A stretch of DNA of 60,059 nt, counting the filler, from Hausera hauseri (Eukaryota), in assembly GCA_046269625.1 (NCBI GenBank). It is 11 parts of 11 records of this genome, joined end to end, with 100 filler letters (N's around TTAATTAATTAA, not from the genome) between each part and the next. Parts side by side here need not be neighbours in the genome. Positions count along the whole stretch, not along the records: positions 40,726 to 46,290 come from JBJURY010229962.1; 10 more parts are not named here. The stretch is one strand, 5' to 3'. The notes beneath the pieces are model-generated. The model was not told the DNA's origin and did no database searches. It was given only the letters and a program-made list of their open reading frames with translations. The position numbers were made by a program, and so were the translations under genes. Numbering within the stretch: position 1 is the first letter of the stretch; each line of letters starts with the position of its first letter. Of this stretch, positions 8,935 through 46,290 are shown in pieces.

Positions 8935-9138
8935 GGGGTCTAGACGAGGTAAATCCGTTATTAACTTCTGTCTATACTTCGGTTTTCATGTCTTTAGTAC
9001 TAGTTGTTTGATACTAGGTACTTGTTTCTTTGCTTTCATCTGACTATCGGCATCATTATCGTTAGGTATATGATACAAGGATTCTTTTTTGTCCTTCCTT
9101 TGTAGTATCTTCCTCTTCCATCCTGCATCGTGATTTGC

Positions 9139-10960
9139 TAAGAAACAACTTGCTACTGCCGGTATTACCGCTATTAAAATTTTTTATGAGCCCCCTACTG
9201 CTGCATGTATTCCATAAGCTTTACCTAGTGCCGTAAATACTGTCCGTATGGCGCTAATAATGGAATATATAGCTAGAAAACCGGAAGCTGCTTGACCGAA
9301 ATATAAGAACTTTCCCCACATTTTCGCCATAACGTTTTTTGTTACTTTCTTTAAATAATCCTTACCCATTAGGTTTTCCTATTGCAGTGATTCTTCGCTA
9401 TCCCACATTACTCACCTAGTTAGTTCTGTTATAACTCTGTCTTTGTTAAGGAAACAACAACATTCGTCGATAATCCTCTAGATTTTGTTGTTTATAAATT
9501 CCTCCCTGAGATATTCCTGTTAAGGGTTCATATTTTTGATTCCTTTGCAGATTAATTAAACTTAATGTCTCCGGTTTGGCACTGGCTCTCTTTTTGGCAT
9601 TATAATCCACTTGCCGTTATCGATTTTAAACATTGGCGACATACTGAAGGTGTAATTATATAATGGACTAGGCTTCACATTAATATCTAATAGTATTCTG
9701 GTTACTGGCATGACATATTTCGCTAATGTATGGTAAACTACAGGTAATTCCATTGTACATTCGTCCGTTCGTCTGATTAATACTTCTACCTTCTTGCATT
9801 CTATTGTTATCAGTACCTCGCCCATTACACTTCCGATAATCCCGTCGCCGAAGGGCATTACTGGTGCTACCATGTCCGGATTTGTTATTACCAATGCCAT
9901 TTTATTACGCGTTATTTCATAGTTCAACTTACATTCATTTATTACTATTTCTCTATATAAACCTCTAATTTCTTTCCTTACACAATTAATTAGAAAATCA
10001 ATCTTATTACCGAAATATTGTGTTAACTTGATATCTTTCTTATCTATTTTGATTTTCGCCCCGGGTATTTCTATTCTAGACAAGAAAATACTCTTATAGT
10101 TGGTTTTTGATATTTCTTCGCCGCACTTATTTGCTACTCCGGTGACTTTAAATCGCATCATTTCTTCTGGACTTTCCGAATATACAAATGTAGCTACCTC
10201 CGTCATCTTGACTTCCTTTGTTCCTTCTTTATATGTCACTGTCTCTTTCCGCCCTTTCCCTACTGTCTTGTTAAACTTTCCTTCCTTTAACAGTGTCAAC
10301 CGACATTTACTTGCTGAGGTTTCCTATGTCATTTTCGACTCTCCAGTATCACATTAGCCATTATCATGTTCGCACTCACTCATAGTCGTCATCAATTTTG
10401 TTTTTCATATTCTTTCAACTGGATCTGATAATCTTCGATGGCTACCGTTCTAGGCGCAATAGTACCTCCAACATCATAATCCACTCCATTTACAGGTGAC
10501 TTCCATTGTTTTATATATTCTTCCTGCCCTGAAAATTCTTGTATATTTTATTCCTGTTTCGAACTGGCAGTAGGTAAGCGTTTTGTATAGTCATAATGCA
10601 AATCTTAAAAGCAACCTGGCATTCAGCTCGTGATATTATTATTGGTCCGAAAGGTGTTGTGGGCTCGTTTATGGCCGAATTTCCAGAATAATAGGCACAA
10701 TTTAACAGGAAAAATGATCTTTTTACATAACATTCCCTAATTTTTCTTTGATAAATTCGGATTCTTGATATACCCAGTATGTAAGGCCACTTGTAGTTGC
10801 TACTTGTTCTGGGTCAACTTCTGGGCACTTCTCTAAATCCACTAGAGAGTACTTCCGTCCTTCGCTAGGTGTAGAGTAGTCATAAGCCACTATACATACG
10901 GCTTTCGGCATTAATAATGACGTTATTAGGAGAATTTGAAGAATCTCCACTATTAACATA
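9139..10960 (-). pseudogene. Chuvirus-like (class III, gB-type) envelope glycoprotein with internal signal peptide
   Basis: Signal peptide MLIVEILQILLITSLLMPKAVC, then IVAYDYS...YSLVDLEKC, CNGVDY, ECKLNYEI, GEVLITIECKKVEV, CTMELPV, PVTRIL, and C-terminal WGKFLYFGQAASGFLAIY..AYGIHAAVGGS*KILIAV membrane region. These match chuvirus G motifs as I recall them. Confidence 0.82.
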
Positions 10961-12212
10961 CCTGTTATGCCTGGTCTAGAGGTGTTTGGCTGTGTCGCAG
11001 TTGGCGTATCTGTTAATCTTTCACGTTCTCCTGACCTTACTATATTGGTCATTAAGCTGGTCAGCCATTTACCTCTACATTGAGCCAAGTTTCCTAGCGT
11101 ATCTTTCAAAATTTTTACGGCTGTCTTTATATTTCTTTCAATCTCTTCTAGATTTTGAGTCTGATGATTAATTACTATTATTTTATATAAGAAATAAGAT
11201 ATAGCCGTTTGGGCTTTTTCTCGAGTAATTCCAGTTACGAACATTTTTTCTAAAATATCCAGTTCATGCACTTCGTTTATACGTTTTTCATCTAAGTTCT
11301 CACAGAATTGTCTATTTATTCGCAGCATATTATTACGTAACGTTGTGAACAATTCGTCTGCAATTATTACCTGCATGTCAAATAAGGCAAATGACGTATG
11401 CAACTTAGCTAATAACGTTCTTAGTAATGGATCTATATCCACCGATTCGGGAGTGCCATTTGTTCCTGCTAATAATAAACGTCTTACTATTTCTTTGTTC
11501 TTATCATTTCTGTTACAAATGTCACTTATTTTTGTCCCTTTTTGCCTACTTCTTCTTATAGCTTCCGTCTGAACTGTAACATCTTGCGTATCACCCCTAG
11601 GGATTCCTTCTACTCCGTGTAGTTCTATTTCCCTTAAGATATTCTATACTGTCGCCTGTGCTCTTGCCTCTGGATGTATTTCAGTTATCGTTATCGGATT
11701 GTATTTCTCACTTCTACATCCCATTCTTAATAATTTATCGTAGTTACATAGTGTCCCTCCATAATAATTTAATTTATAAGGACTCCCCTGGTAAAAGGTT
11801 AAAATCCTCAATCTTTTCTCTTAGCGTTTGTATATCGTCTGCTTCGTTCATCCTAATGACCCTCATATCTTGGTTTCATTCCCTTACCGTTATCCGTATG
11901 ACTTCATTTCTTCCTTTCTCGTCTTCGGCAGCTTTGGCCAATACTGTCCTGCTTATTTCTCTTATAGGACTCGTATCTTGGGCTAATAATACCAACTGAG
12001 GTAAGATCTCGTTCATCCTTTCTACCGTTACTTTATTGGTAAGTATCTTCAATATTGTGGTAGTCGTTTTATCTACATCGAGTATATTATCAGGACCGAC
12101 AGTCATTACTGCNNNNNNNNNNNNNNNNNNNNNNNNNNNNNNNNNNNNNNNNNNNNTTAATTAATTAANNNNNNNNNNNNNNNNNNNNNNNNNNNNNNNN
12201 NNNNNNNNNNNN

Positions 12213-26013: not shown

Positions 26014-29000
26014 TCGGCTGACGGTAAACTCGGTCTGAGTGTCTACCTGAATGGATTGTCCTGCCTTATTAACAGAGATTCTCTGGATATTCTCGTCTAA
26101 TAACTTTATATCTGGGTTAGTGAATCGTAGCATATCGCTAGGTTTTATTCCATGATGCTTGTACCAAGCAGGTACGACGAATTGGAATTGTGGTTTTGTT
26201 TTATAGATTTTAGATACGTTCCTTAGGTACAGACGATAGGTGATGTTGNNNNNNNNNNAATCTATGTCGCAACATTGCGTATGTTCTCCTGGCTCAAAAT
26301 CAAAATTTTTTGTTTCTTTTTAAAATTTTGAAACCTACCAAAATCGTAGTATGGTTTCCTAGCCTTAAGTCCAACGCATGTGGAGTTAGGCGAGTAATAG
26401 TGAATTGTTATTGATTGTAATAATCTTACATCTCCTTGTCTTTGACTTTCTTCGACTGTTGGTTTCTTTTCCGTTTTAATAGCCTCCAGTCTTTCTTCAT
26501 TTTTCCGAATTCCGTATAAACTTTCTAGTTTAGATTTTTCACGCCCCCATTTAGCTTGTATTCTCGGAATATAAGAAGCAATTAGCGATAATGCTAAAAC
26601 TATTTGAACGTACGATATCGGTCTTGCAAGTACTGAGGAAGTTTTTTTTCGCGTTGGCGTAAATTGTAACGTTTATTGAGTCGTATCTCCGTGTTGACAA
26701 CTCTTTGTATTGACACTACTTCTTCCTTTTCATTCTTGTTGATGTACACTGTGTGCGACGTAACTCAGGTAACTTTGTACGGTCCTCTGCCGATACGAGT
26801 TAATTTTAATGAAGTGCCTTTTTTGGCTACGGGATAGTGTACATAAATCCAATTTCTTTGCTCTAAATCATTCGGTCTTGTCTTCTGCTCATATTGTTTT
26901 TTAAACTGTTCTTGATATTCTCGAGATAGTTCCTTTGCGATCTCCTAATATTTTTGTAATCGTGTCCGTAGTACTTCTGCAAAAATTTGTTCTAAATCTT
27001 CGGGGTTGTCTGTGTATGACGTTATTCGTAAATCCGTTGGTAACACTGCTTCACGTCCATACATCATGCAAAATGGTGTGAATCCTGTCGTTGGATGTGG
27101 TGTGGTATTAATTGCAAATTGGGTTCCTTATAGAAATTCATTTTAATCTTTCTGATCCTTGGCTACCACCGTGGATAATATACGTATGACGGTAGCGTTC
27201 ATTTGCTCGACCATTCCGTTACACTGAGGGTGATATGCGGTAGTGGTCAATCGTTAGATTTTGAATATCTTAGTGATCTTCTCGAATAGTTCGCTAGTGA
27301 AGTTTCTTTCCCGATCTGTGAATATCTGACCTGGAGGTTTGTATCGGCAAATAAGTTTTCTCACTACGGCTTCTGCCAAGGTTTCCGCCTTTTGATCGAT
27401 TAGCGCTATAATTTCGACAAAATGAGTTAATCTGTCAATACAAGTTAAGATATACTTATTGTTCTTGTGAATTGTAGGAAGAGGTCCTACGGTATCCATA
27501 GATATGGCCTACATAGGTCTATGGGGTACATTAATTGATTTTAATTCGGCCATGTAGTTTTTTGTCTTCTTTTTTTTAGTCGCGCTTACTTCGCAGGCAT
27601 TTATCCAGTTCTTTACATTAATATAGATACTAGGCCAAAAATATTTANNNNNNNNNNATGTGTCCGGCTAAACATGAGTCATATTCCAACGTTAGCACTT
27701 TGGTTTGTAACCTTTTGAAATAGCTATCAATTTTCTTCCTTTCCGTTCGTAATATAAAATATCCTCATTGTTGTTGTCATTTAAGACGCAATATTTATGT
27801 CTGTGTCTGTGTATATGTTTCTTTAATTGTCGTTCTTTTGGTATAATGTCTTTTTTAGCAAATTTTATAACCTGCTGAATAACTTTATCCTTTCTTTGTT
27901 TTAAGGAGATTTTGATGGCTTTATCAAGCGCTAAGGCGCATTGGCGATCTACTATTGCCTCAAGTTGGCTTTTCTTCATTACCATGATTGCGCTTGTTTC
28001 AGTCTTTAATCTCGATAGTGCATCGGCATCTACATGCATATTTCCTGACTTATACTGGAATTCGATATTGTATCTCAATATTTCTTCAATCCATCTGTAA
28101 AATCTGCATGTCGGATTATTCGCTCGTTCCTTTAAAGTCGTGACGGCTTTGTGATTAGTAACAATTATAATTTTCTGTTCGTATACGTAAACGTTGAAAT
28201 GTCGAAGTGCTTCCTTTACGTCTAGGGTTTCTACTTCGGTAGAAGAATCATTTTTCTTGGCTTTATTCAAGGAACGTCCTCCATAAGAAATCGGGTGTTC
28301 TAATTCTTTATCTTCTCTTTTCTGCGCTAATTTATGTAAAATGCTTTCTTTACTGGCATCTGTTTTGATTATAAAAAACATGTTGAAGTCTGGGTATCGT
28401 AAAACAGGTTCACTTGTTAATATCTTTTTCATTTCATCGAAAGCTTTCTGTTCGACGTCTGTCCATTTCCGTTTAATTTCTTTTTTAAGTAGCCGGTATA
28501 GAGGTCCACTAATTTTTGAATTATCCGGCACGTACTTTGCGTAATATCTGCATAGTCCTAGCCAGTGCCTTAATTCCTTCTGGTTTTGTGGTTCTATACA
28601 GTCTGATAAATTATTTAATAATGATTTATCTGGCTTTGATCCTACTTCTCTAACTATATGGCCAAGGTAGGATACGGCATTTTGAGCCAATTTCATTTCT
28701 TCGAATTTACTTTCAATCAGGTTTGTTCCAGTCTCATCAATGTATGTTTGATATCCTTTAAATGTTCTTCTTCGGTCCTTGACACTATCATTATGTCATC
28801 TAAGTATGCAAAAGCATAATCCAATCCCATTAACATTTTGTTCATCATTCTTGTAAATATGGATGGTCTGGTAGTAATACCGAACGGCATGACGTTAAAT
28901 TTATAAACACCATCGTGTGTCTTAAATGCTGTCTTATAACGATCTTCACCATCAATCTCCACTTGCCAATATCCGCATTGTAAATTCAGAGTGGTAAACC

Positions 29001-30783
29001 ATTTTGCTCTTGAGAGTATGCCAAATCCTCTTTCATTTACGGTAATGAGAAGGAATCTTTTATCATAAGATTATCTAAGGCTCTGTAGTCAATAAAAATC
29101 GATGTTTTGTGGTACCTTTCTTTTTAACCATGAGGATTGACGAATACCAAGATCTATAACTAGGCCTAATAATATTGGCCTTAAGCATTCCTTCGACTTC
29201 TTTCGTTATTTCGGGTCTTAGTAAATGTGGCGGAGGGTACCATTTTGGCATCTTTTGGTCTTCCAAGTCTATTTCTTCGTTCGAACCAGGCTTTTTCTTA
29301 AGTGGAATAATCAATTTCAATGCTTTTGCTCTACCGATATCTTCTTTGTCTTTAGCGATAATCGATTTGTAGCGGCACAATAATTCGTAGAATCGACAAT
29401 AAGATTCAGGGGCGAACTTAGTTTCAACGTGAGGTAGAAATTCGGCATACTTATACGGATTTTCTTCAACAGTTACTGACAACACCCTATATGTATCTCC
29501 TAGAGTGGTATAGGTATAAAGCTTGACAGGAGTTGGTGCATTATTTGATATTCTGATCGGTACACGACCGGAGTGTACTCTTGTCAGTACGTTACTGAGC
29601 GTTATATTTTATTCAATGTCTCTCTTGGTTTGAAATATACCGGTTGATCGTCATCTTGCTGAATTTGCCCGTGAATTATCACTTTTGTTCTCGGTGGAAT
29701 ATCTTCGTCTACGGGAATCCGTATCTCTCCAAATTTTCTATCCTTAGCGTTTTTCACGCATTTATTTGGCGTGATTTCTATTAATTTCCCTATCTGTAAG
29801 TCGATTGCTATATTTGGTAATCTTTGCAGTAAATCACATACTAGAACTACGTCGTCAGTTAATTGCTCCATAACTGAAAATTCGTGATGGAAAAACTGTC
29901 CAACTATTTGAACTTCTGGGTTCCATTTGAACATCGGTTTCGACATTTGACCAAGAGCTCCTGTACTTCCTGGATCGTTCATTGACGGTGGATATAAATA
30001 TCCTCTTAGCGTTTGAGGTATTAAACCATTTTTGACGTAAGACATCTCAAAACCTGTATCAATTAACGCATAAACTTCCCAGTCTTCGATAACTATTTTA
30101 GCGAAAGGTCTTCATTCTATTACTGTTCCGAAGCAGTTTGATGCTACTTTTGGGCGTTTAGTCACCGATATTTTATGTCCACTGATTCGGATTTCTGGGG
30201 AGGATACTATGTTTTCCGCCAGCTGCCTTAATTCTCCATTTGGATATAGTTCATTATTTTCGATATTTAATTCTGCCACTTCATGAGTAGTAATTAACGG
30301 TTCTCGATTGTTATTGTGTAATTCGGTATTCTGGAAGGTTCTTAACCTCGGACTGTCCCACACCGTTGATCTAGTTTCTATATTCCGAGGTTCTCTGGGG
30401 AAATACAACAACTTGGGATCGTCCGTGGATTGTCGATAACACATTTTCCGGAGGATCCCATATCGTTTCGTTCATTTATAAGGGTCCTCTACATTAATTG
30501 TCCTTTTATGAATTTCCGTCTGATATGAACTCATGGATCGTTTGTCACAGTCTTCATAGAATGGAACAGTAGGAGGTAGCATAGGCGCTTTGATGGCAGA
30601 ATATGTCTTATGTCTGTTTATTCTTGAAAGTGTTTCTCCTCCCTTAGGCTCGTCATTGTCTGAATTATTTCTTTGCGTATTATGTTTTATGAATTTTCGC
30701 TTGTACAAAAACGTAGGCCTTCCTTTCCTTTTACGATGATAATATCCGACATGGCGCTCTACGTCCGTTTTCCATGTGTTCTC
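26014..30783 (-). mobile_element. Family B copy 1: glycoprotein tail - PR - RT - RNase H - IN - post-IN secreted-type domain (decayed)
   Basis: WKTDVERHVGYY tail shared with contigs 7 and 8; LIDTGF; GYWQV and AYLDD; IKTDAS; MDTVGPLP; GPYKV; then RPISYVQIVLALSLIASYIP. Confidence 0.9.
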
Positions 30784-30883: not shown

Positions 30884-33800
30884 TCTCATAAAGGAAGGAA
30901 GAAAGGTAATAAGAAAATAATTGACGTAGAGATTGGATCAAGAGAAACGTCAACAGAGAGGGACGAGGTAGTGAAAGGAAAGAAAAGAGGAAGAAAGAAG
31001 AGTACCTTAGTACACCCTCATTGGACGAAGATGAACCTGAAGCTACACCAATATTTGATGAAGTTATATCAGATCAAGTAGTAAGGAACCCAGGTGTAGA
31101 CTTAGACGAGGAGGAGGATATCAATCAGGCAGTATTGGCTGTAGACCCCGGTAATATAATTAATGTGGATAAAACGACTACTACGATATTGAAGATAATT
31201 ACCAGTAACGTAACGATAGAAGGAATAAACGAAATCTTACCTCAATTGGTATTATTAGACCAAGATGCCAGTCCTGTCAGAGAAATAGCCAGGACAGTAT
31301 TGGTTAAGCCGTAGAAGATGAGAAAGGCAAAAATGAAGCTATACGAATAACGGTAAGAGAAGGAAACCAGGACATGAGGGTCATCAGGATGAATGAAATT
31401 GATGACGTACAAACTTTAAGACAAAAGATTGAGGAGTTGGAGCCTTTTTATCAAGGGATTCCTTATGGATTACATTATTATGGAAGAACACTATATAATT
31501 ACGATAAGTTATTGAGAATTGGATATAGAAGTGAGAACTACAATCCAATAACGATAACCGAAATACATCTAGAGGCAAGAACACAGGCAACAGTGGAGAA
31601 TATCCTAAGGGAAATTAAACCACAGGAAGTACGAAATGCCATGGGTGATACACATGATGTCACAGTTCATACGGAAGCCAAGAGAAGAGGTAGGCCGAAA
31701 GGGACAAAAATAAGTGACATTTGTAACAGAAAAGATAGGAACGAAGAAATAGTAAGACGTTTGTTATTAGCAGGAACAAATGGCAGTCCTGAATCGGTGG
31801 ATATAGATCCATTACTAAGAACGTTATTGGCTAAGCTGCATACGTCATTTGCCTCATTTGACATGCAGGCAATAATCCCAGACGAACTGTTCACAACGTT
31901 ACGTAATAATATGCTACGAATAAGTAGGCAATTCTATGAGAATTTAAATGAAGAACGGATAAATGAACTGCATGAGCTGGATAGTTTGGAAAAAATATTT
32001 CCAACTGGAATTACGCGAGAGAAAGCTCAAACGGCTATATCTTATCTACTATACAAAATAATAGTAATTAATCATAAGACACAAAATTTAGAAGAGATTG
32101 AGCGGAATATAAGGACAGCAGTAAAGATTTTGAAAGATACGTTAGGAAACTGGGCTCAATGTAGAGGCGGATGGCTAACCAGCCTGCCGACTAATATAAT
32201 AAGGCCAGTAGAACGAGAAAGATTGACAGATACGCCAACTGCGACACAACCAAACACTTCTAGACCAGGCATAACAGGTATGTAAATACTAGAGATTTTT
32301 CAAGTTCTCCTAATAACATCATAACAGGATGCTCATACATAATAAAAGGATGCTCATGGAAAATCATAATAGCTATAATACCCTCAGTAGCAAGTTGTTT
32401 TCTAGCAAACCACGATGCACGATGGAAAAGGAAAAGATTACAAAGGAAGGATGTAAAAGAATCTCCGTATAGTGTACCTGATGATGACGATACAGAATAT
32501 AGTCAAGTAAAAGCAAAGAAACGAGAAGCTGCAATCAAACAACTAATGCTGAAGACACGGAAGCTAATAACGGACTTACCCCGTCTAGATCATGTGGATG
32601 GATATCATGGACAGTTATATAATGAACAACCATTAATAAATCCTTCAGCTCCCCGATACGTAGTACAAACAGGACTATATCCTATACATCAAGTGCAACA
32701 GATGAAACAAAATTCTGATGAAACACGAATCTACGTATACAGTTGACGATAAAAACGAACGACAGCCACCTATAATACCAGAAGTAGAAATAGAAGTGAA
32801 TGGATATCCAATGACGGCTCTACTAGACACTGGATCCACAACAACAATAATGGGAAGAATCCAATTGCCAAAGCAGTTAAAAAGAAAACCACGTATACCA
32901 ACAACTACCTTGGTAAATGTAGGCGTATTCGGCACAGAGGAAGAAATCAAGTTGGTCTTAGATTCCGAAATCAAGATCGGTGAACAAATTTTGAAACATA
33001 CTATAAGAATAGCAGATAATCTGACTAAAGAAATTTTAATTGGGTGCGATATACTAAACCAATTGGAAAATGTTCATATAGATGTGAAAACTTGACAACT
33101 CAAGACGTTCAATGAAGATCGTAACGAGGGAATGGTTTCGCTAGCAAGAGACATCACGATTCCACCACGATGCGAGATAGTGGTGCCTGGAAAAATAGAA
33201 AGTCGTGTCGTACCAGAGATTATATATTTTGAACCGTCCCCACAGGTTATGGAAAAATATGAAGTTCTAATTGCCCCTCACGTGGATAAAGTAAGAGATG
33301 GAAAGATCCACTTACGAATCTGTAATACAACAAAGAAAAACGATTACGGAAGGGTACTAGACTGGGAAAAATAACGATCACTTAAGAAATAATAAAAGAA
33401 GAAATCTGCTCAATAATATCAGATGTAGATAAAATAGAAAAGATAATGACCGCCAAAGTGAAAACCAGACGAAGATAAAAGAAGAAATAAAACCACGAAC
33501 ATCGATTGGAACGAGAGGTTACAAAAATGCGAAATTATAAGTAAGAAAGAGAAGGAAATGTAATTGAATTGTTGGAAAAGAATAATAGTCGATTTGCACA
33601 AACTGATAATGATTTAGGCACAAAGAAAATAATACAGCATAACATTAAGTTAAAGGACGGACACGACAAGCCAATTAAGAAAAGAGCATACCGATTAGCA
33701 TACAATAAAAACAGGAAGAACGTAAGATAATAAAAGAAATGAGGGAAAATAAGATAATTCGACCGAGTTGCTCCCCATGGACAACGCCAGTGGTAATGGT

Positions 33801-35693
33801 TAAAAAGACGGAACTGAGATTCTGTATAGACTATAGAGCCTTGAACGAAATAACAAAGATGGATACATATCCCTTACCAAGAATTGACGAGATAATAGAT
33901 AAACTACACGGATAGACCATATTCACAACCATCGATCTACAAAAGGGTTATTGGCAAGTGGAGGTTAAAGAAGAAGATAAACCAAAGCCAGCCTTCTCAA
34001 TTGGAGAAGGGTTATGGGAGTTTAATAGAATGCCCTTTGGATTAAAGAATGGACCGCCAACGTTTCAGAGAAGAACAAATCTCCTGCTGTTAGATGCCCC
34101 ACATGCAATGGTATATATCGATGATGTAATAATAGCATCACCAAATTTTCAAGAAAATCTAAGGGATCTACAAGACCTCTTAGATAGATGTGAAATAATG
34201 GGTTTAAAAATAAATCCAAAGAAATGTTCATTTGCTTAAGCAGAAGTAGATTTCCTCGGACATAGAGTAGATAAGCATGGCGTAAAACCTCAAGACAAGC
34301 TTTTAGGAAAAATAAGAGATTTTCCAAAGTCAGGTACAGTTAAAGAATTACGTCAATTTTTAGGTTTAGCAAACTATTACCAAAGACTCATAAAGGATTT
34401 TAGCAAAATCGCGAAACCTTTGTATGAATTATTACGTGAAGATCTAGATAAAGTAATCTGGACAAATGAATGTCAAAAAGCTTTTGAATATTTAAAAGAT
34501 AGACTATTAAAGGCTCCTATATTAATTTATCCGGACATAACCAAACCATTTATTTTGGCAACAGACGCAAGTGATTATGGAGTAGGAGCAGTATTATCAC
34601 AAAAGGGCAAAGATGGAAAAGAACACCCAGTAGCTTATGCTTCACGAAAACTTAATAAGCATCAGAAGAAATATGCCGTAATAGAAAGAGTTATCAGAAG
34701 TAATTTTTGCCTTGGAAGTATTCTCACAATATATTAGTGAAAATAAACCTCTCTTGATCTATACGTATCATAGACCGCTTCAATGGCTAAAACAGCATGA
34801 AAATCCCAACAGCAGACTACTACGGTTGGCTCTAAAGTTACAACCCTATACATTGAATTTCCAGTATAAGCCTGGATCGCGAAATGCCAATGCCGACTAC
34901 TTATCGAGAATACCTGACAAGTCAGAAACAAAAAGGCACTAGTCGCAGCCGTATGGAGTATGGATGGATCAATCGAGAAAATTAAGACGAATTAAAAAGA
35001 AGACGTTGAAATAAGGCCCATTAGAAAGTACATAAAAGACAAATTCATACCAGTTTACAGAGAGCTAACCCGTCACCTGGCTCGATTAAGCAAAGCTTAT
35101 GAGGAAAAAAAAGGATTTCTACACTTTATTAATCAAAACGGACCTGCGTTAGTAATTCCTAAGAAAAATAGAGCAGTTCTACTGACGCAATTCATGATGG
35201 ATTACTTAGAGGACACCAATCGACCAATAAGACACTAAACAAGCTAAAACGGAAATACTTTTGGCCAACGATAACGAAAGATGTACAGGAATGGTGCAAG
35301 AGCTGCAAGCTTTGTGCAACCCGAAAAAACAGGATCAAAATTCAAAGTACCCCTAAAGGTATGGGACAACCCTCCAGCGCCATTCGAGTTTACCGCAATG
35401 GATATAACGGGACCATTACCATTGACTAGGAATGGAAACAAATATATCTTGGTCTTCATCGACTATTTCACCAGATGGGTGGTTGCCCTACCAATGCATG
35501 ATACGAAGGCAGACACAATCGCTGAGAGATTTCTGGAAAATATAGTATTTAATTTTGGAGCTACAAGAATCCACTTGACCGATCAAGCGTCAAATTTAAC
35601 TGGAACTGTAATGCAGTCATTATACGACATCTTGAAGATATTGAAATTACGATCCACGCCGGGACATCTGGAGAATAATGGAATGGCTGAGAG
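30884..35693 (+). mobile_element. Family A copy 2: Ubl/AT-hook/helical region - glycoprotein deleted - PR - RT - RNase H - IN
   Basis: Collinear with and very similar to contig 2 (DIDPLLRTLLAKLHTSF, LLDTGS, YIDD, TDASDYG, MDITGPLP), but lacks about 1.7 kb of glycoprotein. Confidence 0.92.
31341..32285 (+). CDS. N-terminal polyprotein segment: ubiquitin-like domain (about 31341-31572), AT-hook (RRGRPK), helical domain
   Basis: Open frame IRITVREGNQDMRVIRMNEIDDVQTLRQKIEELE..GIP..LHYYGRTL...; homologous segments in contigs 2 and 7. Confidence 0.6.
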   Translation: MRITVREGNQDMRVIRMNEIDDVQTLRQKIEELEPFYQGIPYGLHYYGRTLYNYDKLLRIGYRSENYNPITITEIHLEARTQATVENILREIKPQEVRNAMGDTHDVTVHTEAKRRGRPKGTKISDICNRKDRNEEIVRRLLLAGTNGSPESVDIDPLLRTLLAKLHTSFASFDMQAIIPDELFTTLRNNMLRISRQFYENLNEERINELHELDSLEKIFPTGITREKAQTAISYLLYKIIVINHKTQNLEEIERNIRTAVKILKDTLGNWAQCRGGWLTSLPTNIIRPVERERLTDTPTATQPNTSRPGITGM

Positions 35694-35793: not shown

Positions 35794-38700
35794 AACAAAG
35801 TAATTCGTAAAATCGGCAGTATGATTCGGGCAAATTTAATTGTAATGTAGGGTGGAAATTCGGTACATTTATAAGGTTTCTCTTGAATAGTGACTGACGA
35901 GGCTCTATACGTTTGTCCCAAAGTAGTATTGGCATATAGTTTGATCGAAGTGGGCGCATTATTCGCTATCCTGATCGGTACACGCCCTGTTGACACCTTC
36001 GTTAAAATATTACTGAGTACGATGTTTGGATTAAGCGATTCCTTTGGCTCAAAATATACTGGCTGATCGTCATCTTGACGTATCTGAGCATATATTAATA
36101 TTTCGATTCTGAGATGTATGTTTTCATCCACGGGAATTCACACCTCTCCGAAATTTCTGTCTTTAGTGGTTTTAACTCCTTTTATTAAGTTAAGTTCTAT
36201 CAATTTCCATGCATTGAAATCTATCGCTATGTTGGGTAGTTGTCTCAATAGGTCGCACCCTAATACTACATCATCCGCTAATTGTTCCATTATTGAGAAT
36301 TCGTGATGAAAAGATTGTCCCATTATATGAATTTCTGGTCTCCATCGGAATGTGCTTTTAGACGATTGACCGAAAGCTCATACACTTCCTGGGTCTGTTG
36401 TGGGAGGTGAATATAATTGTTTCCGTAGGAATTGCGGTATTGAATCATACTTTATCAGTAATATTTCGGATTCTATATTTAACAGTGCGTAAACTTCCCA
36501 ATCTTCCAATTGAATTTTTCGAAGGGCCTACCTTCAATTACCGTACCGTAATAACTTAGTGCTATTTGGGAGTATCGTATCGTGGACACCTTGTAGCGGT
36601 TGACGGTAACTTCTGTGGCTCCAACTGTCTGATCGATTAATTGTCTTAACTCTCCAATTGGGTATAGTTCGTTATTCAGACCATTCGCGTTTTCTAATTT
36701 CTGTTTTTCAACTGGCGGCTGGATTTTTTGGTTTTTGAAATGGTGTGTTTCGCGGCCTCCAGTAAATGTTGAATGCCTTTCGTTTGTTCTAGGTATTCTA
36801 GGTGAATAAATTATACCGTGATCGTCGACTGCTGATTGACAATGCGGGGCAGACGTTTTTCTGTTTTGTGGATCTTACGCAATATCCCGTAGTGTTTTGT
36901 TCCTTCGTAAGGATCCTCTAGACTAAACGGCTTCCGATAGACCCCTGTCTGGCACGAACTCATAGATTGTTACTCACAGTCTTTATATATAGGTGCCGTT
37001 GGCGGCAGTATTGATAATGGTAATTTCATAACAGAGTAGTTTTTGTGCCTATTCGTTTTGGAGACAACGTCTCCTCCATTAGACTCGTCATCGTCAGAGT
37101 TATTTCTTCTTGTCTTACTATCTATTACGTTTTGCCTGTAATCGAATATGCGTCTTTTACGTTTTCGATTATAGTAGCCAACGTGTCGTTTCACATCCGT
37201 TTTCTATCTAATCTCTTCATAAGCATTTAAGAATTTACCGAGAGGTGTTATAATAGCTGTTAGAATCTTACACAAGAATCCTGTCAAAGTGAATATCCCG
37301 TATTCATTTATAATCGCTTGAATTATTGCTTTGATCAGTTGAATCAAGAAATAAATTGCTAGGAATCCTGACGCGGCTTGTCCAATTATCAGGAATCTTC
37401 CAATATTTTATACAATATTCCCGTAGTTACTTTTCGGTAGAAGTTAACACCGAGCAAAGATTCCAATTTCGCTTGATGTCGCGAGTCCTCTAGTATTGTA
37501 TGCTTCGCTTTGTTTAATTTATGTCTGCGTTGACGGAGAAAAGCGAGGAATTATCTGAACGCCTCCACGTCTTTCGGTCGATAAATGCCCTTTGCGGCTG
37601 TATCTTGAAATTTATCATCGGTTATTACTTTTATTAAGTTTGTTTCTGTTAGCTTGGTCGGTGGCGTAATTATGCCGCCGTTTGGAAAACTTACCCAGCG
37701 ACGTCTGAACATTGGTTCTCCCAGGTTGGTCTTGCAGTCTCTCAGAATTGTCGGTTAAGTAGAGTTTGCCAACAGTACTCTAGTAATTGTTGTTACTAGT
37801 CTTGGTACGTCTTGGTATATTACTGGAAGTTCCTGTATACACCTCTTCTCTTCCACATTAATAGGTACATCTTTTTGATATTCATAGGTCAGTAGGACTT
37901 CTCCGGTTACCCGTCCGAAAACGCCTTCTTCGGAATTATTGGTGACGCTAATTCGGGGTTAGCATATATTAAAGCCAGTTTAGTCCTCATGACTATCAAG
38001 TCCAATTTGCAGTCATTTGTTATCATTTTGTGATATAACTCGGCTATTCGAGCTTGTACTTTATAGTAGAAATAGTCGTCTCTATTTTTCAAATAATCCT
38101 CAATTCGAATATCTTGAGTCTCGAGCTTAAACGTCCTGGCGTTTATCTTCGTCTCAGCTACACAGAATGCTTCACAATTGGTGGCGTACATTATGACATC
38201 GCATCTTGTGATTACATCTTCACAAATTTTAATCCATAAGTATCAGAAATCAGTATAGTAGGTGTGGACTGTTCGGCTACATTTCGTGTTAGAGTTGTTT
38301 CCGTGCTACTTATGTATTGTTTCCCTGTAGTCTCATTAAATTTAAGTTCTTTAATTCTGATAAAATTGCAATCGGTCTTGGCTGGGGGTTCCCAAATTAC
38401 CACGGAGCTTCTAAAAGAGCAAGTACTGTCCTGAATGTGGCACTTCTGGTTTTCCGTGTAAAGTTTAGTAACGCTATGGAACATTACTTTTTGTAGGCGC
38501 ATCTCGGTTTTGTAAAAATCCACCACTACGATGTTCGACTCCAGCCCTTTTCCAGTATCGTATTCTGCGCCATTACAATGTCCGGTGTGCATATCTAGTT
38601 TTCCAGCTGCCACTTTATATACTCTGATTATCTTTCTTTGTTGCATTTCTAATTCCATGCCATCCCATTTTAATCTTCCAGTCTCTCTAGCTTGCTTACA

Positions 38701-40625
38701 ATGCTGGCTTTCTAAGTTCATCGGAATTGGTGGGGTTGTTGGCTTGATTATCGATGAATGCCCATGTACCAGTCCACAATGGAAAATACTACGGGATCGT
38801 TGCAACTTACATTTTATTCCGTCTAATGTAACTAGTTCGTGCTGTTGATACAGCACTTAATTTTTCTCTTTTGTTTTTAGTTTATGTGGTCTCGCATCTT
38901 CACACATTTCTATGTCCATTAATGAGTATTTTTGGCCAAGTTTAAATTTGTCGCAGTCGTACACTGTAACTGCACCCATTTGTCTTATTAACATCATCAC
39001 GATTAAGAAGTTAATTAACCAGTTTGGCTCGTTTCCTCTATTATTTCCAGCTACGTTTCGTAACAAGTCTTCAAATCTATTATTGCCAAGGAAGGGTTTA
39101 TTTTGATGTTCGTCTTTTTCAAATAATTTGGACCAATTTACTTCTCGGGACAGTTTCCTGACAGCCTTCCTTGCCAAGCTAGTGGTCTTATTAAATTCGT
39201 TTTTTCGGACCGGATTGGTTTTAACGGCCAAATATAGCAACGCTTTTCTTAACTCCTCCACGGTGTTCTCTACTATAATTTTCTCGATTACCGCTTCATC
39301 GCTTAAGGTGCTTCTGGATAATTTACACCGAAAATTTTTCATGGCCTTGGCTGCATTAAATATAGTCTTCTCTTTTTCGTCTAGTATATCACCACCGAGA
39401 CTAGAGTGATTTTTTCATGAGTTCATTCAGTTCTTCGTCATCTGCACTGAGGGTCGGTACGGACATTTGTCTCAATTTTCTGATTAAGTCCCTATTATAA
39501 TCGATTTCTTTTCGTGTCTTTCGCGGCCTACCGACAGGACGCTTCTGTTTCGTTACAGTCGGTTCGGTATCACTGGTTGGTACTAGATACTTATCATATT
39601 GTTCCTTGTCTTCGTCTGTTTGCAAGTATTTGAGGTACATTGCTGCATCTCGAACTCATACAATTCATCCTACCCACTGTTCAGTCTTTGCTTTCCTTGT
39701 GGCCTCTTGTTTCGTCAGTGGGAATCGTTACTACTATCCGGTTTGCATCGTCTGGAATAATTCCGACTTCTATTAGTAGTTCCAGTTTGTCTAATATTTT
39801 TCCTCTAAAATAAAGTCTACAGATCAGCTCATTTGTATGGCCATTGCTCCTTAACCACAGTGCTACATCCTTTACAAGATAACGTGTAGTAAACTCGTGC
39901 TCATTCTCGTCCATCCAGTCGGGCGTTATTCTTACTTTAATCGTCTCTTTGGGCCTTGTCTTTAAGATTTTAGCATATTATTTGATTAAAAGTTTAGGTG
40001 CAGCACTATAAATCGTACCTTCGCTGGCTAATTTAGTTAGGGTGGGAACTAACTGCCTTAATTGATTTTCAGTAAGGTTTACATTGATTAACTTAATCAG
40101 ATCATTTTCAGTTTGTGCTGAATCCAGAAGCATCTTCACGCTGAATTTCTGATCTGGTGGACACGCCTCCGTTTTGTACAAGTGCACCGGAGTTTTCGGG
40201 TTTTTGGCGAATATTGCATTCAGATACGCGTCCCATTCGTTTTCTTTTTCGGGTAGTCCGAAATCAATCTCCGGAGTTTCTAACGGTCGGACTAAGTTCG
40301 CATCCTTTATTGATTCTTTTAGTTCCCTTAGTTTTTGTTGCATTATAACCATTTGCGTGGTTTGGAAACAACGTCATTTTCCGGAAGTTTGGCGTAATAT
40401 TGTTAGCAGCTGACATAATTCTTCAGCTGATATAAATCCTTGTTCTTGATAATTAGTTAGCTCAGATGCTACGTCTCTTTGCCATCTTTGCACAAATTGT
40501 GACTTGTCAGCCTTTTCTGCTTCTGTAAGAGCATACTTAGTTTTATAAATTTCGAGTTCTTTAGTTAGTTCGTCTAATCTTACCGCTCTCTGTTTGGTTT
40601 TAATGCAAGTTTCTTCAACTTGTCG
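35794..40625 (-). mobile_element. Family B copy 2: coiled-coil/Ubl/AT-hook region - chuvirus-like glycoprotein - PR (decayed)
   Basis: RLYFRGKIL Ubl-like motif; VGRPRK; signal peptide and glycoprotein; EGRP..WEVYALLN protease start and VVLGCDLL. Homologous to contigs 5 and 8. Confidence 0.88.
37230..39022 (-). pseudogene. Chuvirus-like envelope glycoprotein, family B
   Basis: WLINFLIVMMLIRQMGA / VTVYDC...YSLMDIEMC; IFHCG; CNGAEY; NDCKL; GEVLLTY; CIQELPV; TRVL; IGQAASGFLAIYFLIQLIKAIIQAII membrane region. Confidence 0.85.
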
Positions 40626-40725: not shown

Positions 40726-43700
40726 GGGATAGGTTAAAATAGCCAACTGTACAATAAAATGATAAATAACGACTGTAAATTAAATATGGAAATTATGAGG
40801 ACAAAATTAGCCCTTATTTATGCGAATCCTAAGTTAGCCTCACCTATCATTCCCATGAGAGAAGAAAATTTTGGTCGAGTCACTGGTGAAGTAGTACTAA
40901 CATATGAATGCGAGAAAAGAGACGTACCAATTAATGTCGAGGAAAACGATGCATACAAGAACTTCCTGCGATCTATCAGAATACTCGGCGCTTAGCTATG
41001 CCTCTCACCAGAGTGTTGCTCGATAATGCGACACAACCAACCATTATAAAAGATTGTAAAGCAAGTTTGGGCGAACCAATGTTTAGGCGTAGCGAAACAG
41101 GTTGGATTAGCTTACCCAATGGAGGTGTCACTATTATTCCTAAAAAACTAAATGGGACTAATTTAGCAAAAGGAATTACCGACGACAAGCTCCAGGATAC
41201 ATCTCAAAACGGCATTTACAGACCAAAAGAGATCGAAGCTTTTCGACAATTTCGTGATTTTCCACGACAGCGAACACACAAATTAAACCGAGCTATGTCA
41301 TCAGTAGTAGACGATACCCGCCACCGGGCTAAATGGGAATACTTGCTTGACGCGAACCATTACTAGCGAGTAACCACAGAAATACTCTATAAAATATGGG
41401 GAGGATTTTTAATTTTTGAACAAGCTGCATCTGGATTCTCAGCAATCTATTTCATGGTACATCTGGTAAAGGCGGTAATCCAAGCGGTTATAAATGGGTA
41501 TGAAATATTCACGCTAACAGGATTTTATTGCAAGATCTTAACCGCGATTATCACACCGTTTGGCAAAATGCTAAAAGCATACGAAGAAAATCGATGGAAA
41601 AATGACGTTGAACGCCATGTCGGCTACTATAATTACAAACGTCGAGCAAGACCCATACTTTGACTGAAACGTATGGTTAAAAAACCAATGACTCGAACAA
41701 ATAACTCCAATGATGACGAGCCTAAGGGAGGAGATGCGATCCTCAGACAAAATAGACACAAAATTTATTCAGTAATTAGAGCACCTTTACCCATCATGCC
41801 GCCAAAGGCTCCAATATACGAGGATTGTGACAAAACATCTATGATGTCATATAGATCAGCATTCTGTTAGAAACCCTTCAGCTATGAAGATCCTTATGAA
41901 GGAACAAAACAATATGGAGTCTTAAAGAAGATGCAAATCACTAACCAACGACGAGCGGAAGACGACCATGGGATATTGTACTCACCGAGGATAGCTCGAA
42001 ATATAGAAACAAGATCAACAGTATGGTGAACGCAAGGAGTAAACTCGTTCTAAAAGCCAATAGTACAAGAACTATTAATTAGAAACAATACGAATAACAT
42101 GGCAGTTAACGACTTATACCCTAACGAAGAACTGAAACAGCTGACCGAAAATATTATTTCATTACCAGAGATAACGATAAACGAACATAAAATTTCCTCG
42201 ATTAAACGACCAAAAGACGTGTCAAGTTGTGATGGGTCAGTCATTGAAGGAAGACCCTTTACAAAAGTTATTATAGAAGATTGGGAAGTCTAAGGTTTAA
42301 TAGACACCGGATCAGAGAAGTCGTTTATCAAATTAGAATCGATACCGCCGACACTCCGAAAGCAACTGCAGCCGGCATCATCATCAGACCCAGGCAGCAT
42401 GGGAGCCTTCTGGCAAGAATCCAAACCAAAATTTAAATGGAGTCCTTTAGTCCAATTAATGGGCCAAATTCTACTACATGAGTTTGCCATAATGGATCAA
42501 TTAACCGATGATGAAGTGCTAGGTTGTGACATACTGAAACAATTACCCAATATCGCAATAAACTTACAGATTGGAAAGCTACTAGAACTTGGACCAGTGA
42601 AAGGAATTAAAACAATGAAAGAAAGGAAGCAAGGAGAAGTATGGATCCCCGTCGACGAAAATATTCCGCCTAAAACCGAAATGCTAATTTATGCTCAAAT
42701 CCGCGAAGAGGACGATTAACCAGTATATTTTGAGCCACAAGAAGACGTTAATCCAAATATTATACTCAGTAACATTTTGACAAGAGCAGCGAGAGGAAGA
42801 GTACCAGTCAGATTAGTGAATAACGCACCAACTCCTGTAAAATTATATGCCAATACTACTTTGGGTCATACTTATAAGGTATCAGCAATAACGATCGAAG
42901 AAAAGCCGTACAAATATGCCGAGTTTCCACCTCATGTTGAAACTAAATTTTCGGCAAAAGCATATTGTCAGTTTTACGAACTACTATGCAAATATAAGTC
43001 AATTATTGCCCAAAATAAAGAAGGCATAGATAGAGCGAAAACCTTAAGATTAACCATTCCATTAAAAAAGAAATCTGGATTTAATGACAAAATTGATTTG
43101 GAAGAGCAAAAAATGTCAAAATGGTACCCACCGCCTCATTTATTAAGGCCCGAAATAACTAAAGAAGTGGAACGCATGTTAAAGGCCGACATAATACGAT
43201 CAAGCTACCGATCTTGGTACTCACCAATACTTATGGTCAAGAAAAAGTGTACCACAAAACATCGATTCTGTATAGATTACCGAGTCTTAAATACATTGAT
43301 GATGAAGGACTCATTTCCACTACCATCAGTAAAGGAAGCTCTAGACAGATTATCAGGAGCAAAATAGTTTACCACACTGGATTTACAATCCGGATATTGG
43401 CAAGTAGAAATTGAAGAAGATGATCGTTATAAGACAGCATTTAAAACGCACGATGGAGTTTATGAATTTAACGTCATGCCGTCTGGTATAACAACCGGCC
43501 CAACTATTTTTACTAGAATGATGAGCAAGATGCTAATGGGACTAGCTCATGCGTTTGCGTATTTAGACGATGTAATGATAGCGTCCAGAACAGAAGAAGA
43601 ACACCTAAAGGACATCAAGGATACTCTTATGCGATTGGAACAGGCAGGATTGAAACTAAACCCAAAGAAATGCAAATGGACACAAAATGCTTTGTCTTAT

Positions 43701-46290
43701 CTCGGACATATAGTCAAAGAAGGAGGATCGAAGCTAGACAAATACTTATTAAACAAAATATCAGATTGTATGGAACCCAAAAATCAGGAAGAATTAAGAC
43801 ATTGGTTAGGCTTATCGGATATTATGCCACCTACGTATCAGACAATTCGAAAATAAATGCGCCGTTATATCGGCTATTGAAAAAAGGCATCAAATGGAAA
43901 TGGACCGATGTAGAACAGAAGGCGTTCGACGAAATGAAGAAAATTTTAACAATTGAATCAGTGTTAAGATACCCGGATTTCAATTTACCATTTATAATTA
44001 AAACAGACGCAAGTAAAGAATTATCTCAAAAATTGAATACGAAGAATTTGAGCATCCAGTTGCATACGGAGGACGATAGCTTAAGAAAGCTGAGACAAAC
44101 TATTCAGTCACTGAATTAGAGACACTAGTCGTAAAAAAAGCATTGAGACATTTAATGTCGATGTCTACGGACAGAAAATTACTATAGTTACCGATCATAA
44201 AGCTGTCACGACGTTAGAAGGACGGGCCAATAACCCACAATGCAGATTAAATTGGTGGATTGAGGAATTTTCGCGATACAATATTGAATTTCAATATAAA
44301 CCCGGAAGCAAACACATCGACGCAGACGCTCTATCAAGACTTAAAACAAAGACAAGCGCAATTACAGCCATGAAATAAATCAAGCTCGAAGAATTGGTCG
44401 AGCGACAGCAGACCCTGACACTAAATAAAACGATCAGAATTTCTGCAGAACAAGCTAAAAATAAAGTCATCCAACAGATAGTTAAATTTGTAGAGCAAGA
44501 CGAGATAACAAAAGGACGTCAACTAAAGAAACACTTACAGAGACACGGACACAAATATTATGCATCAAATTCGGATAATATTGTATATTACGAATGAAAG
44601 GGATGGAAATTGGTAGTTATTCCAAAAGGATTACGAACGAAAGTGTTAATGGCCGAACACGATTCACATTTAGTCAAACATGTCATGAAAGAAAAAATTA
44701 GAAAGGATATTGAATAAGTACTATTGGCCAAGTGTTTATATCGACGTGGAAAATTGGGTGGACGCTTGTGAAGTCTGCGCAACAAAACAAAGAAAATTGA
44801 AAAACTATATAGCAGAATTAAAACCTATCGACGTACCAGATAGATCTATGCAAGATATGTCTATGGATATAGTATGACCTTTACTTACAACTCATTAAAA
44901 TAACAAATATATTTTGACATGCGTAGATTGTTTAACGCACTTTGTGGAATTAATCGCATTAATTGATCAGAAAGCGGAAACATTAGCAGACGCAGTAGTA
45001 AGGAAAATCATCTGCAGATACAGACCGCCAGATCAAATATTGACCGATAGAGGAAGAAACTTTACAGCGAACTATTTGACAAAATTTCTAAAATCTTCCA
45101 AATCGAACGTATAAATACAACAGTTATACGTGTCTTATCAACCGTAGTAGCGAAGGATCAAAAAGACTGGGATGAATTTTTAGAAGGAACACAATTCGCT
45201 ATCAATACTACCCCACACCCCGCCACAGGATTTACACCATTTTTATGATGTATGGACGCAAAGCGATTTTACCTACGGACTTAAGAATGACTCCGTATCA
45301 CGCAAATCCAGAAGATTTAGAGCCAAACTTCGCAGAAGTCCTACAAATGAGACTACAAAAATGATGGGATATAGCTAAGACGCTTACTCTCGAGTATCAA
45401 GAACATTTTAAGAAAAAATATGATAAGAAGGCCAAACCTCATGATCTAGAAAAAGGAAACTGGGATTACGTATACTATCCAGTTGCAAAGAAAGGTACAT
45501 CATTAAAACTCACTCGCACTGGATGAGGTCCCTACAAAGTTATTCGAACCACACCAACTACGGTGTACATTAAGAAAAATGGCAAAGAAGAGGTAGTATC
45601 TATTCAGAGAGTTGTTAAAACAGAAATAAAACCCGAAAGACGTTACAATTTGCGATCTAGCTCGCAGCAAGATAGAAAGAAAACAAAAACATCCTCCATA
45701 ATCAATAGACCAATATCGTACATTCAAATAGTGTTAGCACTCTCGCTAATTGCCTCCTATATCCCGAAAACACAAGCTAACTGGTGGTACGACAGTAGAA
45801 CGAGATTGAATGTTGCTAAAACAGAAAAGAATTCAACAGTCGAAGTAAATCAAAGACAAAAAGATGTAAGATTATTACAAGCAATAAGGATCCACTATTA
45901 TTCGCCTAACTCCACATGCATTAGATTAAAAACACGAAAACCACTCCGAAATTCTGGAAGGATCCAAGTTATCTTAGATGATGTAATAACAAAGAAAACA
46001 AAGAACTGTGACTTTGAGTCCGGAGAACGTACGCAATGTTGCGACATAGATTTCGAACATACTTATAATCTGACCTATCTAATGTACCTACCAAAATTAT
46101 CTAAAATTTACGAAATAAAACCACAATTCCAACTAGTTATTCCTGTTTGGAATAGGCATCATGGAGTAAAACTGAACGAAATGTTGCGATCCACTGACCC
46201 AGACATAAGACTGCTAAACGAAAATATCCAGAAAATCTCTGTGAATAAGAAAAGACAATGTATTCAAGTAAATACTCGGACGGAACTAAC
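40726..46290 (+). mobile_element. Family B copy 3: glycoprotein C-half - PR - RT - RNase H - IN - post-IN domain
   Basis: NDCKL, GEVVLTYEC and QAASGF..IY (glycoprotein); LIDTGS; FCIDYRVLN, DLQSGYWQV and AYLDD; IKTDAS; CEVC; LTDRGRNF; GPYKV; RRYNLRS; then a hydrophobic segment. Confidence 0.92.
45700..46290 (+). CDS. Signal-peptide-led, Cys-containing domain fused after integrase (unknown function, truncated by contig end)
   Basis: In frame with the integrase GPY motif. ISYIQIVLALSLIASYIPKTQA / NWW...; NxS/T sequons; conserved in contig 5 (26014-26625, minus strand). Confidence 0.65.

Follow-up and report, generated by a model that had tools for sequence, protein, structure and literature searches.

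The window analysed here is a 60,059-nucleotide stretch made of 11 contigs of Hausera hauseri (GCA_046269625.1) with N-spacers between them, and five of the contigs carry Ty3/gypsy-type elements in which a viral fusion glycoprotein (G) lies upstream of pol (Table 1). Two families can be distinguished, family A (contigs 2 and 6) and family B (contigs 5, 7 and 8, the last being JBJURY010229962.1 at 40,726..46,290), and all five copies are broken. The order G, protease (PR), reverse transcriptase (RT), RNase H (RH) and integrase (IN), which the original prediction had assigned to two divergent families, is present as a whole in contigs 2 and 8 only; the other three copies are incomplete, as contig 5 begins inside the G tail, contig 6 is without about 1.7 kb of G (a blastn gap against contig 2) and contig 7 stops before RT. 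Gag is absent from every window contig. Separately, many diverged copies of these elements were observed in run X1, possibly the source of the window itself, and the word share in run X2 was small (0.08).

Table 1. Positions of element features along the window.
Feature	Contig (family)	Position	Strand	Basis
C-terminal half of gB/chuvirus-type G, broken (frame change near 40940 plus stops); hydrophobic anchor about 41436-41492	8 (B)	40738..41660	+	PF24664 on three pieces; hydropathy peak (anchor)
Coding linker, G anchor to protease, same frame	8 (B)	41601..42254	+	Stop counts, third-position excess
Retropepsin-type protease	8 (B)	42255..42600	+	PF00077 E=0.0012; alignable to contig 2 and 6 proteases
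PR-RT spacer	8 (B)	42601..43130	+	Coding signal p=6.7e-11; no Pfam match
RT, RNase H and integrase, with stops and frameshifts	8 (B)	43131..45660	+	Pfam; Ty3 RT top in PDB; tblastn with intact relatives
In-frame post-integrase extension, putative ectodomain, truncated by contig end	8 (B)	45661..46290	+	ORF, hydropathy, contig 5 match
Cargo region, internal signal segment at about 10968-10912, and start of G; a single stop-free ORF spans 11643-10726	2 (A)	10726..12112	-	Bcl-2-like domain about 11451-11029
Fusion glycoprotein ectodomain and anchor, broken	2 (A)	9105..10725	-	PF24664 E=2.6e-26; tblastn
Linker, protease, RT, RNase H and integrase (truncated by contig end)	2 (A)	5949..9104	-	Pfam
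Likely ubiquitin-like domain, AT-hook-like motif, Bcl-2-like domain (31785-32192)	6 (A)	30884..32322	+	Profile and model matches
Derivative with env deleted, comprising G tail, linker, PR, RT, RH and IN	6 (A)	32323..35693	+	blastn gap against contig 2; Pfam
Cargo region upstream of a near-complete but broken G, with a signal segment at about 39018-38962; linker and protease follow	7 (B)	35794..40625	-	PF24664, tblastn
Single-frame G tail, linker and protease, followed by RT, RH, IN and post-integrase extension	5 (B)	26014..30783	-	Stop counts, Pfam, contig 8 match

The glycoprotein is of the Monjiviricetes/chuvirus type, as had been proposed. PF24664 is matched upstream of the protease in contig 2 (Table 1), contig 7 (E=1.5e-12 and 1.3e-6) and contig 8 (6e-5, 1.9e-7 and 6.4e-12), and with E values down to 2e-97 in database relatives; G of contig 8 shares 29-46% identity with G of the relatives P0121, P0001 and P0273. 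A class III (gB-type) fold is predicted from this Pfam family and the available text on related envelopes (PMC13524379). The gypsy-type Pol of the original prediction also held: Pfam places PR, RT, RH and IN in this order in contigs 2, 6 and 8, and the top PDB matches of RT are 4ol8 (E=9e-43) and Ty3-G Gag-Pol 7q5b (6e-42), followed by 8r0s (7e-32) and foamy virus (8e-19) in a database that has few retrotransposon RTs. A BEL/Pao Pol was rejected, as no BEL/Pao-specific Pfam family was found among 150 ORF pieces and RT matches Ty3. The window elements, with Ty3-like RT and gypsy-type RNase H and H2C2 integrase domains (Pfam), thus differ from Anakin, which in the accessible part of its description has the same glycoprotein family on a BEL/Pao backbone (Dezordi, 2020). 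In two unfinished quick RT trees, family A grouped with nine relatives (SH-aLRT 81) and family B formed an unplaced long branch; the second tree used 33 chosen proteins of the 129 with RT, with P0008 put in the G-first set despite having no PF24664 match.

In contig 8, all seven ORF starts listed in the original prediction share one frame. Over 40935-43856 (974 codons) this frame is interrupted by 9 stops, compared with 82 and 64 for the two alternative frames (binomial P=4e-22). The first piece of G (40738-40992) lies in a different frame, and a further frame break occurs near 43815. The catalytic motif of the protease lies near 42303, ahead of the ATG at 42399 with which the original prediction had marked the protease. 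The linker carries 4 stops in frame against 14 and 23 in the alternative frames, together with a third-position excess relative to contig 5 (p=1.2e-11) and contig 7 (p=1.5e-7). Similarly, the contig 2 linker has one stop in frame against 11 and 13, and the G tail-linker-protease frame of contig 5 has 3 stops in 394 codons against 33 and 28. In contig 2, the stretch from the glycoprotein membrane region to the protease had been described as broken only by the stops at 9184-9186 and 8986-8988; both are present and the contig 6 counterpart of the former is a sense codon, but six extra in-frame stops lie inside G (9564-9381), and the pairing of 8986-8988 with contig 6 hinges on gap placement because this stop abuts an 18-nt gap there.

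This coding constraint bears on whether G and pol are neighbours merely by chance, either because a chuvirus endogenous element, or env belonging to a tandem element upstream, came to lie beside a gypsy pol, or through an assembly artefact. Jingchuvirales glycoprotein fragments are often gypsy-flanked without capture, according to the available part of one survey (PMC10084718), and the contigs are short (4-6 kb, with ends inside the ORF) with no LTR pair found in the window. However, the junction is identical in two divergent families and constrained at codon level, and intact single-ORF polyproteins elsewhere refute such an origin, which is considered extremely improbable.

It is also very unlikely that Env and Pol were separate products of programmed frameshifting, readthrough or splicing, with the common frame incidental. 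Frame changes do occur in two linkers, contig 6 having lost 17 nt at 32721, which shifts the frame between the G tail and the protease, and contig 7 having two frame changes, and equal amounts of Gag and Pol would be unusual; moreover, three relatives (P0129, P0131 and P0139) terminate shortly after G, via a stop or the contig end. Against this, the frame is kept in contigs 2, 5 and 8, and none of eight contig 8 stops coincides with one in contig 5, nor any of seven with one in contig 7; no stop or indel position common to the window copies was found. The linker frame changes of contigs 6 and 7 are read as probable decay. Ten relatives are uninterrupted, with PF24664 followed by RT-RH-IN in one intact protein (P0001, P0002, P0118, P0121, P0123, P0125, P0134, P0140, P0273 and P0275).

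These intact single-ORF relatives back the ancestrally continuous Env-Pol frame that had been predicted. Of 12 database matches with E<=1e-30, ten were scanned, and in eight of these a protease follows G in the same protein; a hydrophobic segment with a conserved G start is present in all nine relatives inspected. N-terminal Gag or zinc-knuckle matches were found in P0001, P0118 and P0121, Gag-to-G continuity is seen in relatives including P0169, and P0275, at 4844 aa, carries ankyrin repeats. A word-based search with a G fragment against longer proteins returned none of 1025 candidates. The predicted Env-Pol polyprotein is supported, but its extent was underestimated, the unit being longer, with Gag and cargo first and usually continuing beyond integrase. 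The nematode endogenous retroviruses of Sacco and colleagues reportedly have a continuous gag-env-pro-pol ORF.

The cargo preceding G in contig 6 includes a Bcl-2-like domain, which matched Bcl-xL in a profile search (E=3.4e-4) and was modelled by AF2 with a pLDDT of 78. In a Foldseek search with this model all 40 of the matches listed belonged to the Bcl-2 family, the best at E=0.011 and none at E<=0.001; an Atlas search with the stretch gave nothing usable, and a single-sequence fold of 31308-32282 was unusable (pLDDT 40). P0169, a close relative of contig 6, is 48% identical to family A across the stretch. In family A a Bcl-2-like domain before env is shown by lines of evidence that agree but are individually weak, and in family B it is no more than suggested. 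The domain lies directly before the internal hydrophobic segment, which in turn precedes G. A ubiquitin-like domain is likely in the contig 6 cargo, with a weak Pfam ubiquitin match (E=0.031) in P0169 only.

A similar layout is known from the giant gypsy-like LTR retrotransposons of planarians called Burro, in which, in the part of the description available, env lies in frame between gag and pol alongside Ubi/SUMO and BCL2 motifs (Arkhipova and Yushenova, 2019; PMC6431247). At the level of description, the single ORF of Burro/GYPSM1 is paralleled by the env-pol frame of the window and the Gag-to-G continuity of relatives, and its BCL2-like motif before env by family A, Burro having a Ubi/SUMO-like motif as well. 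Where Burro has a dUTPase-like region between PR and RT, contig 8 has a constrained coding spacer. Burro env matches mononegavirus fusion glycoproteins, a further likeness, and in some hosts Burro copies are likewise decaying, present as fragments broken by stops and frameshifts. In contrast, domains of the MATH, BIR, Smc or ankyrin kind were not seen in the truncated window contigs, and the accessible Burro description names no membrane module after integrase, unlike family B. The available part of PMC11410931 holds nothing further on Burro domains.

A second precedent is the GAG-ENV-POL gypsy elements with gB-type Env reported from several clades in nematodes, bryozoans and flatworms (Chary and Hayashi, 2026; PMC13524379). 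These 'ancient errantiviruses' share the Ty3/gypsy Pol, the chuvirus-like gB-type Env and the position of env before pol, and sometimes have the ectodomain between two transmembrane segments, as is predicted here; they are intact, whereas the window copies are dead. The accessible text states no single frame and does not mention polyprotein, Bcl, Burro or fibronectin, and its figures may show single ORFs. The same source credits nematode endogenous retroviruses with a flipped ENV/POL order in a metavirus (Sacco et al., 2022).

Given these accounts, it is very unlikely that the elements represent, as first proposed, enveloped Metaviridae-like viruses of a lineage not yet described, with an Env-Pol architecture that is new. 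The closest proteins carry uninformative names and family B is unplaced in the RT tree, yet Burro was published with the same order, in-frame position and Ubi/BCL2 cargo (PMC6431247) and gB-type elements are catalogued from three phyla (PMC13524379), an outcome the original prediction had itself allowed for. The central layout has been published before, and the main addition is two decayed families. Contigs 2, 5, 6, 7 and 8 are very probably decayed copies of two Ty3/gypsy families with a gB/chuvirus-type G in frame before PR-RT-RH-IN, and probably formerly encoded a Burro-like Gag-cargo-Env-Pol polyprotein that is predicted to have threaded the ER membrane several times.

On balance, the segments point to a chain with cytosolic Gag and cargo, an ER-lumenal G cleaved at its start, Pol as a fusogen tail and a second exported ectodomain, with Kyte-Doolittle scans as the sole basis for membrane topology. 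Gag and cargo would remain in the cytosol while the internal hydrophobic segment directs G to the lumenal side of the ER, where signal peptidase could cleave at the conserved G start and leave Gag-cargo membrane-anchored, the Bcl-2-like domain then being placed as in a tail-anchored Bcl-2 protein. At the anchor of G the chain would come back to the cytosol, and Pol would therefore form the tail of the fusogen, to be packaged with it until the protease releases the enzymes. Beyond integrase, a third hydrophobic segment may export another small ectodomain, which would have an anchor of its own. The tethered-Pol mechanism of the original prediction fits these predicted segments; the window copies now cannot follow this route, and infectivity finds no support here because all of them are broken. 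A 1:1:1 ratio of Gag, Env and Pol is odd for particle assembly. Splicing to boost Gag levels is possible and compatible with a single Env-Pol frame.

In family B and in eight of the ten intact relatives, the chain does not end with integrase but runs on in the same frame into a second module consisting of a signal and an ectodomain. In contig 8, an ORF runs uninterrupted from the integrase C-terminus (45527-46288), with a signal-like segment at about 45713-45763, and its extension matches contig 5 (E=2e-41 and 2e-34) with a third-position excess (p=0.015). The module of relatives shows a weak FN3 likeness (PDB profiles at E=0.03 and 0.13; an Atlas match of 0.84, as a lead only), and the Pfam FN3 family was found in none of five pieces. 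No description of the module was found in the literature searched, although the figures and sequence files that go with the text of PMC13524379 may show one.

The putative post-integrase ectodomain could be an attachment partner of the fusogen. Tentatively, and with considerable doubt, the whole might be an entry apparatus of two glycoproteins, made within a single polyprotein that crosses the membrane four times: a gB-type fusogen placed between Gag and Pol and, downstream of integrase, a type I membrane protein that evolves fast, is FN3-like and serves as attachment or trigger partner, like gH/gL or gD for herpesvirus gB; the Bcl-2-like domain, using the envelope signal as tail anchor, might keep producer cells alive. 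The available text of PMC13524379 treats as open the question of how retroelement envelopes of gB type gain entry to cells when the partner proteins of herpesviruses are lacking. A concrete candidate for this missing partner is the second membrane module that most of the intact relatives carry in frame.

The window is made up of 11 short contigs with N-spacers between them. Comparison by blastn paired contig 2 with contig 6 at ~85% and grouped contigs 5, 7 and 8 together at 67-69%, matching families A and B of the original prediction. A Pfam scan covering 150 of 161 stop-free pieces placed a Monjiviricetes fusion glycoprotein (G, PF24664) in contigs 2, 7 and 8, 5' of protease, reverse transcriptase (RT), RNase H and integrase and on the same strand. 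The G-first order proposed for both families stands, and is held whole only by contigs 2 and 8: in contig 6, ~1.7 kb of G is missing and a further 17 nt are deleted ahead of the protease, contig 5 starts within the G tail, and contig 7 has two frame changes in the linker (between the G membrane anchor and the protease) and ends before RT. Contig 2, in which the glycoprotein membrane region had been described as reading into the protease across only two stops, has six additional ones inside G. All window copies are dead. A large and old family, with damage private to single copies, is pointed to because 15,935 contigs of run X1, possibly the window's own source, map to contig 8 across all 30 bins, with 11,966 of them <95% alike to it and most mapped depth reading otherwise at its stop at 41364.

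The seven contig 8 starts cited for an Env-Pol polyprotein do share one frame, and 40935-43856 has 9 stops in its 974 codons, compared with 82 and 64 in the other two frames. Within the linker, the G/protease frame has four stops in contig 8, two in contig 5 and one in contig 2 (binomial P for the deficit 3e-5, 6e-6 and 5e-5, respectively), other frames having 11-23. Furthermore, linker differences between contigs 8 and 5 number 115/217 at third positions vs 54 and 58 at the others (p=1e-11), and third-position excess is also found between contigs 8 and 7 (p=1.5e-7) and contigs 2 and 6 (p=0.01). No stop is common to the aligned copies compared in either family. Together, these observations show that the linker was once protein-coding, in the frame of G and protease.

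Intact relatives were found among database proteins. PF24664 occurs in three of the best 120 of 716 matches to the contig 8 frame, two of these ranking first and second; P0001 (2871 aa) carries Gag at 67-160, G at 558-1205, protease at 1289-1382 and RT at 1606-1764, followed by RNase H and integrase. A HMMER search with the contig 2 G-linker-protease frame gave 12 matches at E<=1e-30, 10 of which were scanned: eight have a protease C-terminal to G within the same protein, and the remaining two, P0129 and P0131, extend only a short way past G. Ten proteins in all, with uninformative names, carry G then RT, RNase H and integrase within one ORF, bearing out the single Env-Pol reading frame and thus arguing that the ancestral unit is a Gag-to-integrase polyprotein enclosing Env. 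One single-ORF relative, labelled as a bacterial MAG protein, is likely contamination. Several relatives (P0125, P0273, P0275, P0128, P0130, P0001) have two or more protease-like domains, some past integrase; such stretches number up to seven in P0275 (4844 aa), which also carries ankyrin and C2H2 motifs.

In the cargo region ahead of G, a stop-free ORF of contig 2 (11643-10726) links a helical domain, by way of a hydrophobic segment, to the beginning of G. Against PDB, the contig 6 counterpart matches BOK alone (E=1.2), a 7-sequence profile matches Bcl-xL (E=3.4e-4), and a structure model (pLDDT 78) returned only Bcl-2 family members in all 40 Foldseek rows listed, none at E<=0.001. A ubiquitin-like domain 5' of this Bcl-2-like domain is a weaker match (E=0.031 in P0169). 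GRP motifs, presumably AT-hook-like, occur in the cargo of both families, at ~31690 (+) and ~39540 (-), and in P0121, P0128 and P0169.

After integrase, an ectodomain is bracketed by two clear hydrophobic segments in seven of the ten full-length relatives; in P0121 one of the two segments is clear and the other weaker, and both are lacking from P0118 and P0140. In contigs 8 and 5 the frame runs past the integrase C-terminus into a common signal-like segment and more coding sequence; the two match here at E=2e-41, with third-position excess at p=0.015. For the P0008 module Atlas proposed fibronectin type III with high confidence, which is a lead only; the top PDB matches to a module profile are short pieces of EphA2 (E=0.03) and PTPRF (E=0.13), which we take to be FN3 domains, and Pfam found no FN3 family in these modules. 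The window's own module has no significant match to those of the relatives. The post-integrase membrane module is the residual lead.

The contig 10 element has its best tblastn matches in two G-first relatives, P0273 and P0275, and so probably represents a third family of the G-first group, seen here at its 3' end. The contig 11 polymerase fragments are likely a decayed Polinton/Maverick, and the contig 4 161-aa frame, which has no Pfam match, is possibly a host secreted-protein exon.

Other elements and features in the window
Feature	Position	Strand	Contig	Source
Small RT-region remnant	4820-5098	-	1	
Gag-like ORF with zinc knuckles, and DDE_3 (Tc1/mariner-type) transposase fragment	13009-13961 and 14146-14529	-	3	
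161-aa frame, signal-peptide-like start, Gly/Leu/Val-rich repeats	16608-17093	+	4	
DUF6451 match	18342-18581	+	4	Pfam
Separate gypsy-type pol (RT, RNase H, integrase), no glycoprotein match	47097-50388	+	9	Pfam
Integrase, then 470-aa ORF containing protease-like sequence and two hydrophobic segments	50496-52970	+	10	
Protein-primed DNA polymerase B fragments (PF03175)	55652-57457	-	11	Pfam

Hydropathy and the conserved G start suggest a membrane-threading scheme. The Gag-cargo block would be cytosolic, an internal signal anchor after the cargo would place G in the lumen, and the G anchor would return the chain so that Pol is cytosolic, followed by a second signal, a small ectodomain and an anchor. 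Cleavage by signal peptidase would part the chain into three blocks, from which the enzymes would be freed by the element's own protease; the earlier idea of Pol tethered to the membrane is included. The scheme leaves an excess of Gag over Pol without explanation.

The RT is Gypsy-type as proposed, with Ty3 as best match. In a quick RT tree, not run to completion, family A joins nine relatives (eight G-first proteins and P0008; SH-aLRT 81) and family B is a long branch without placement; another quick tree, likewise incomplete, gave a similar picture. Chary and Hayashi (2026; PMC13524379) describe gypsy elements of GAG-ENV-POL order whose ENV is gB-type, in several clades and in Nematoda, Bryozoa and Platyhelminthes, liken this ENV to Chuviridae envelopes and cite Sacco (2022) for the nematode cases, so the lineage is not undescribed in kind. 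The feature is real and of a known kind, its copies dead. That the window elements work like Burro, planarian giant gypsy-like LTR retrotransposons with an in-frame env between gag and pol (Arkhipova and Yushenova, 2019; PMC6431247), is well supported, as a claim apart from membership in Burro proper.
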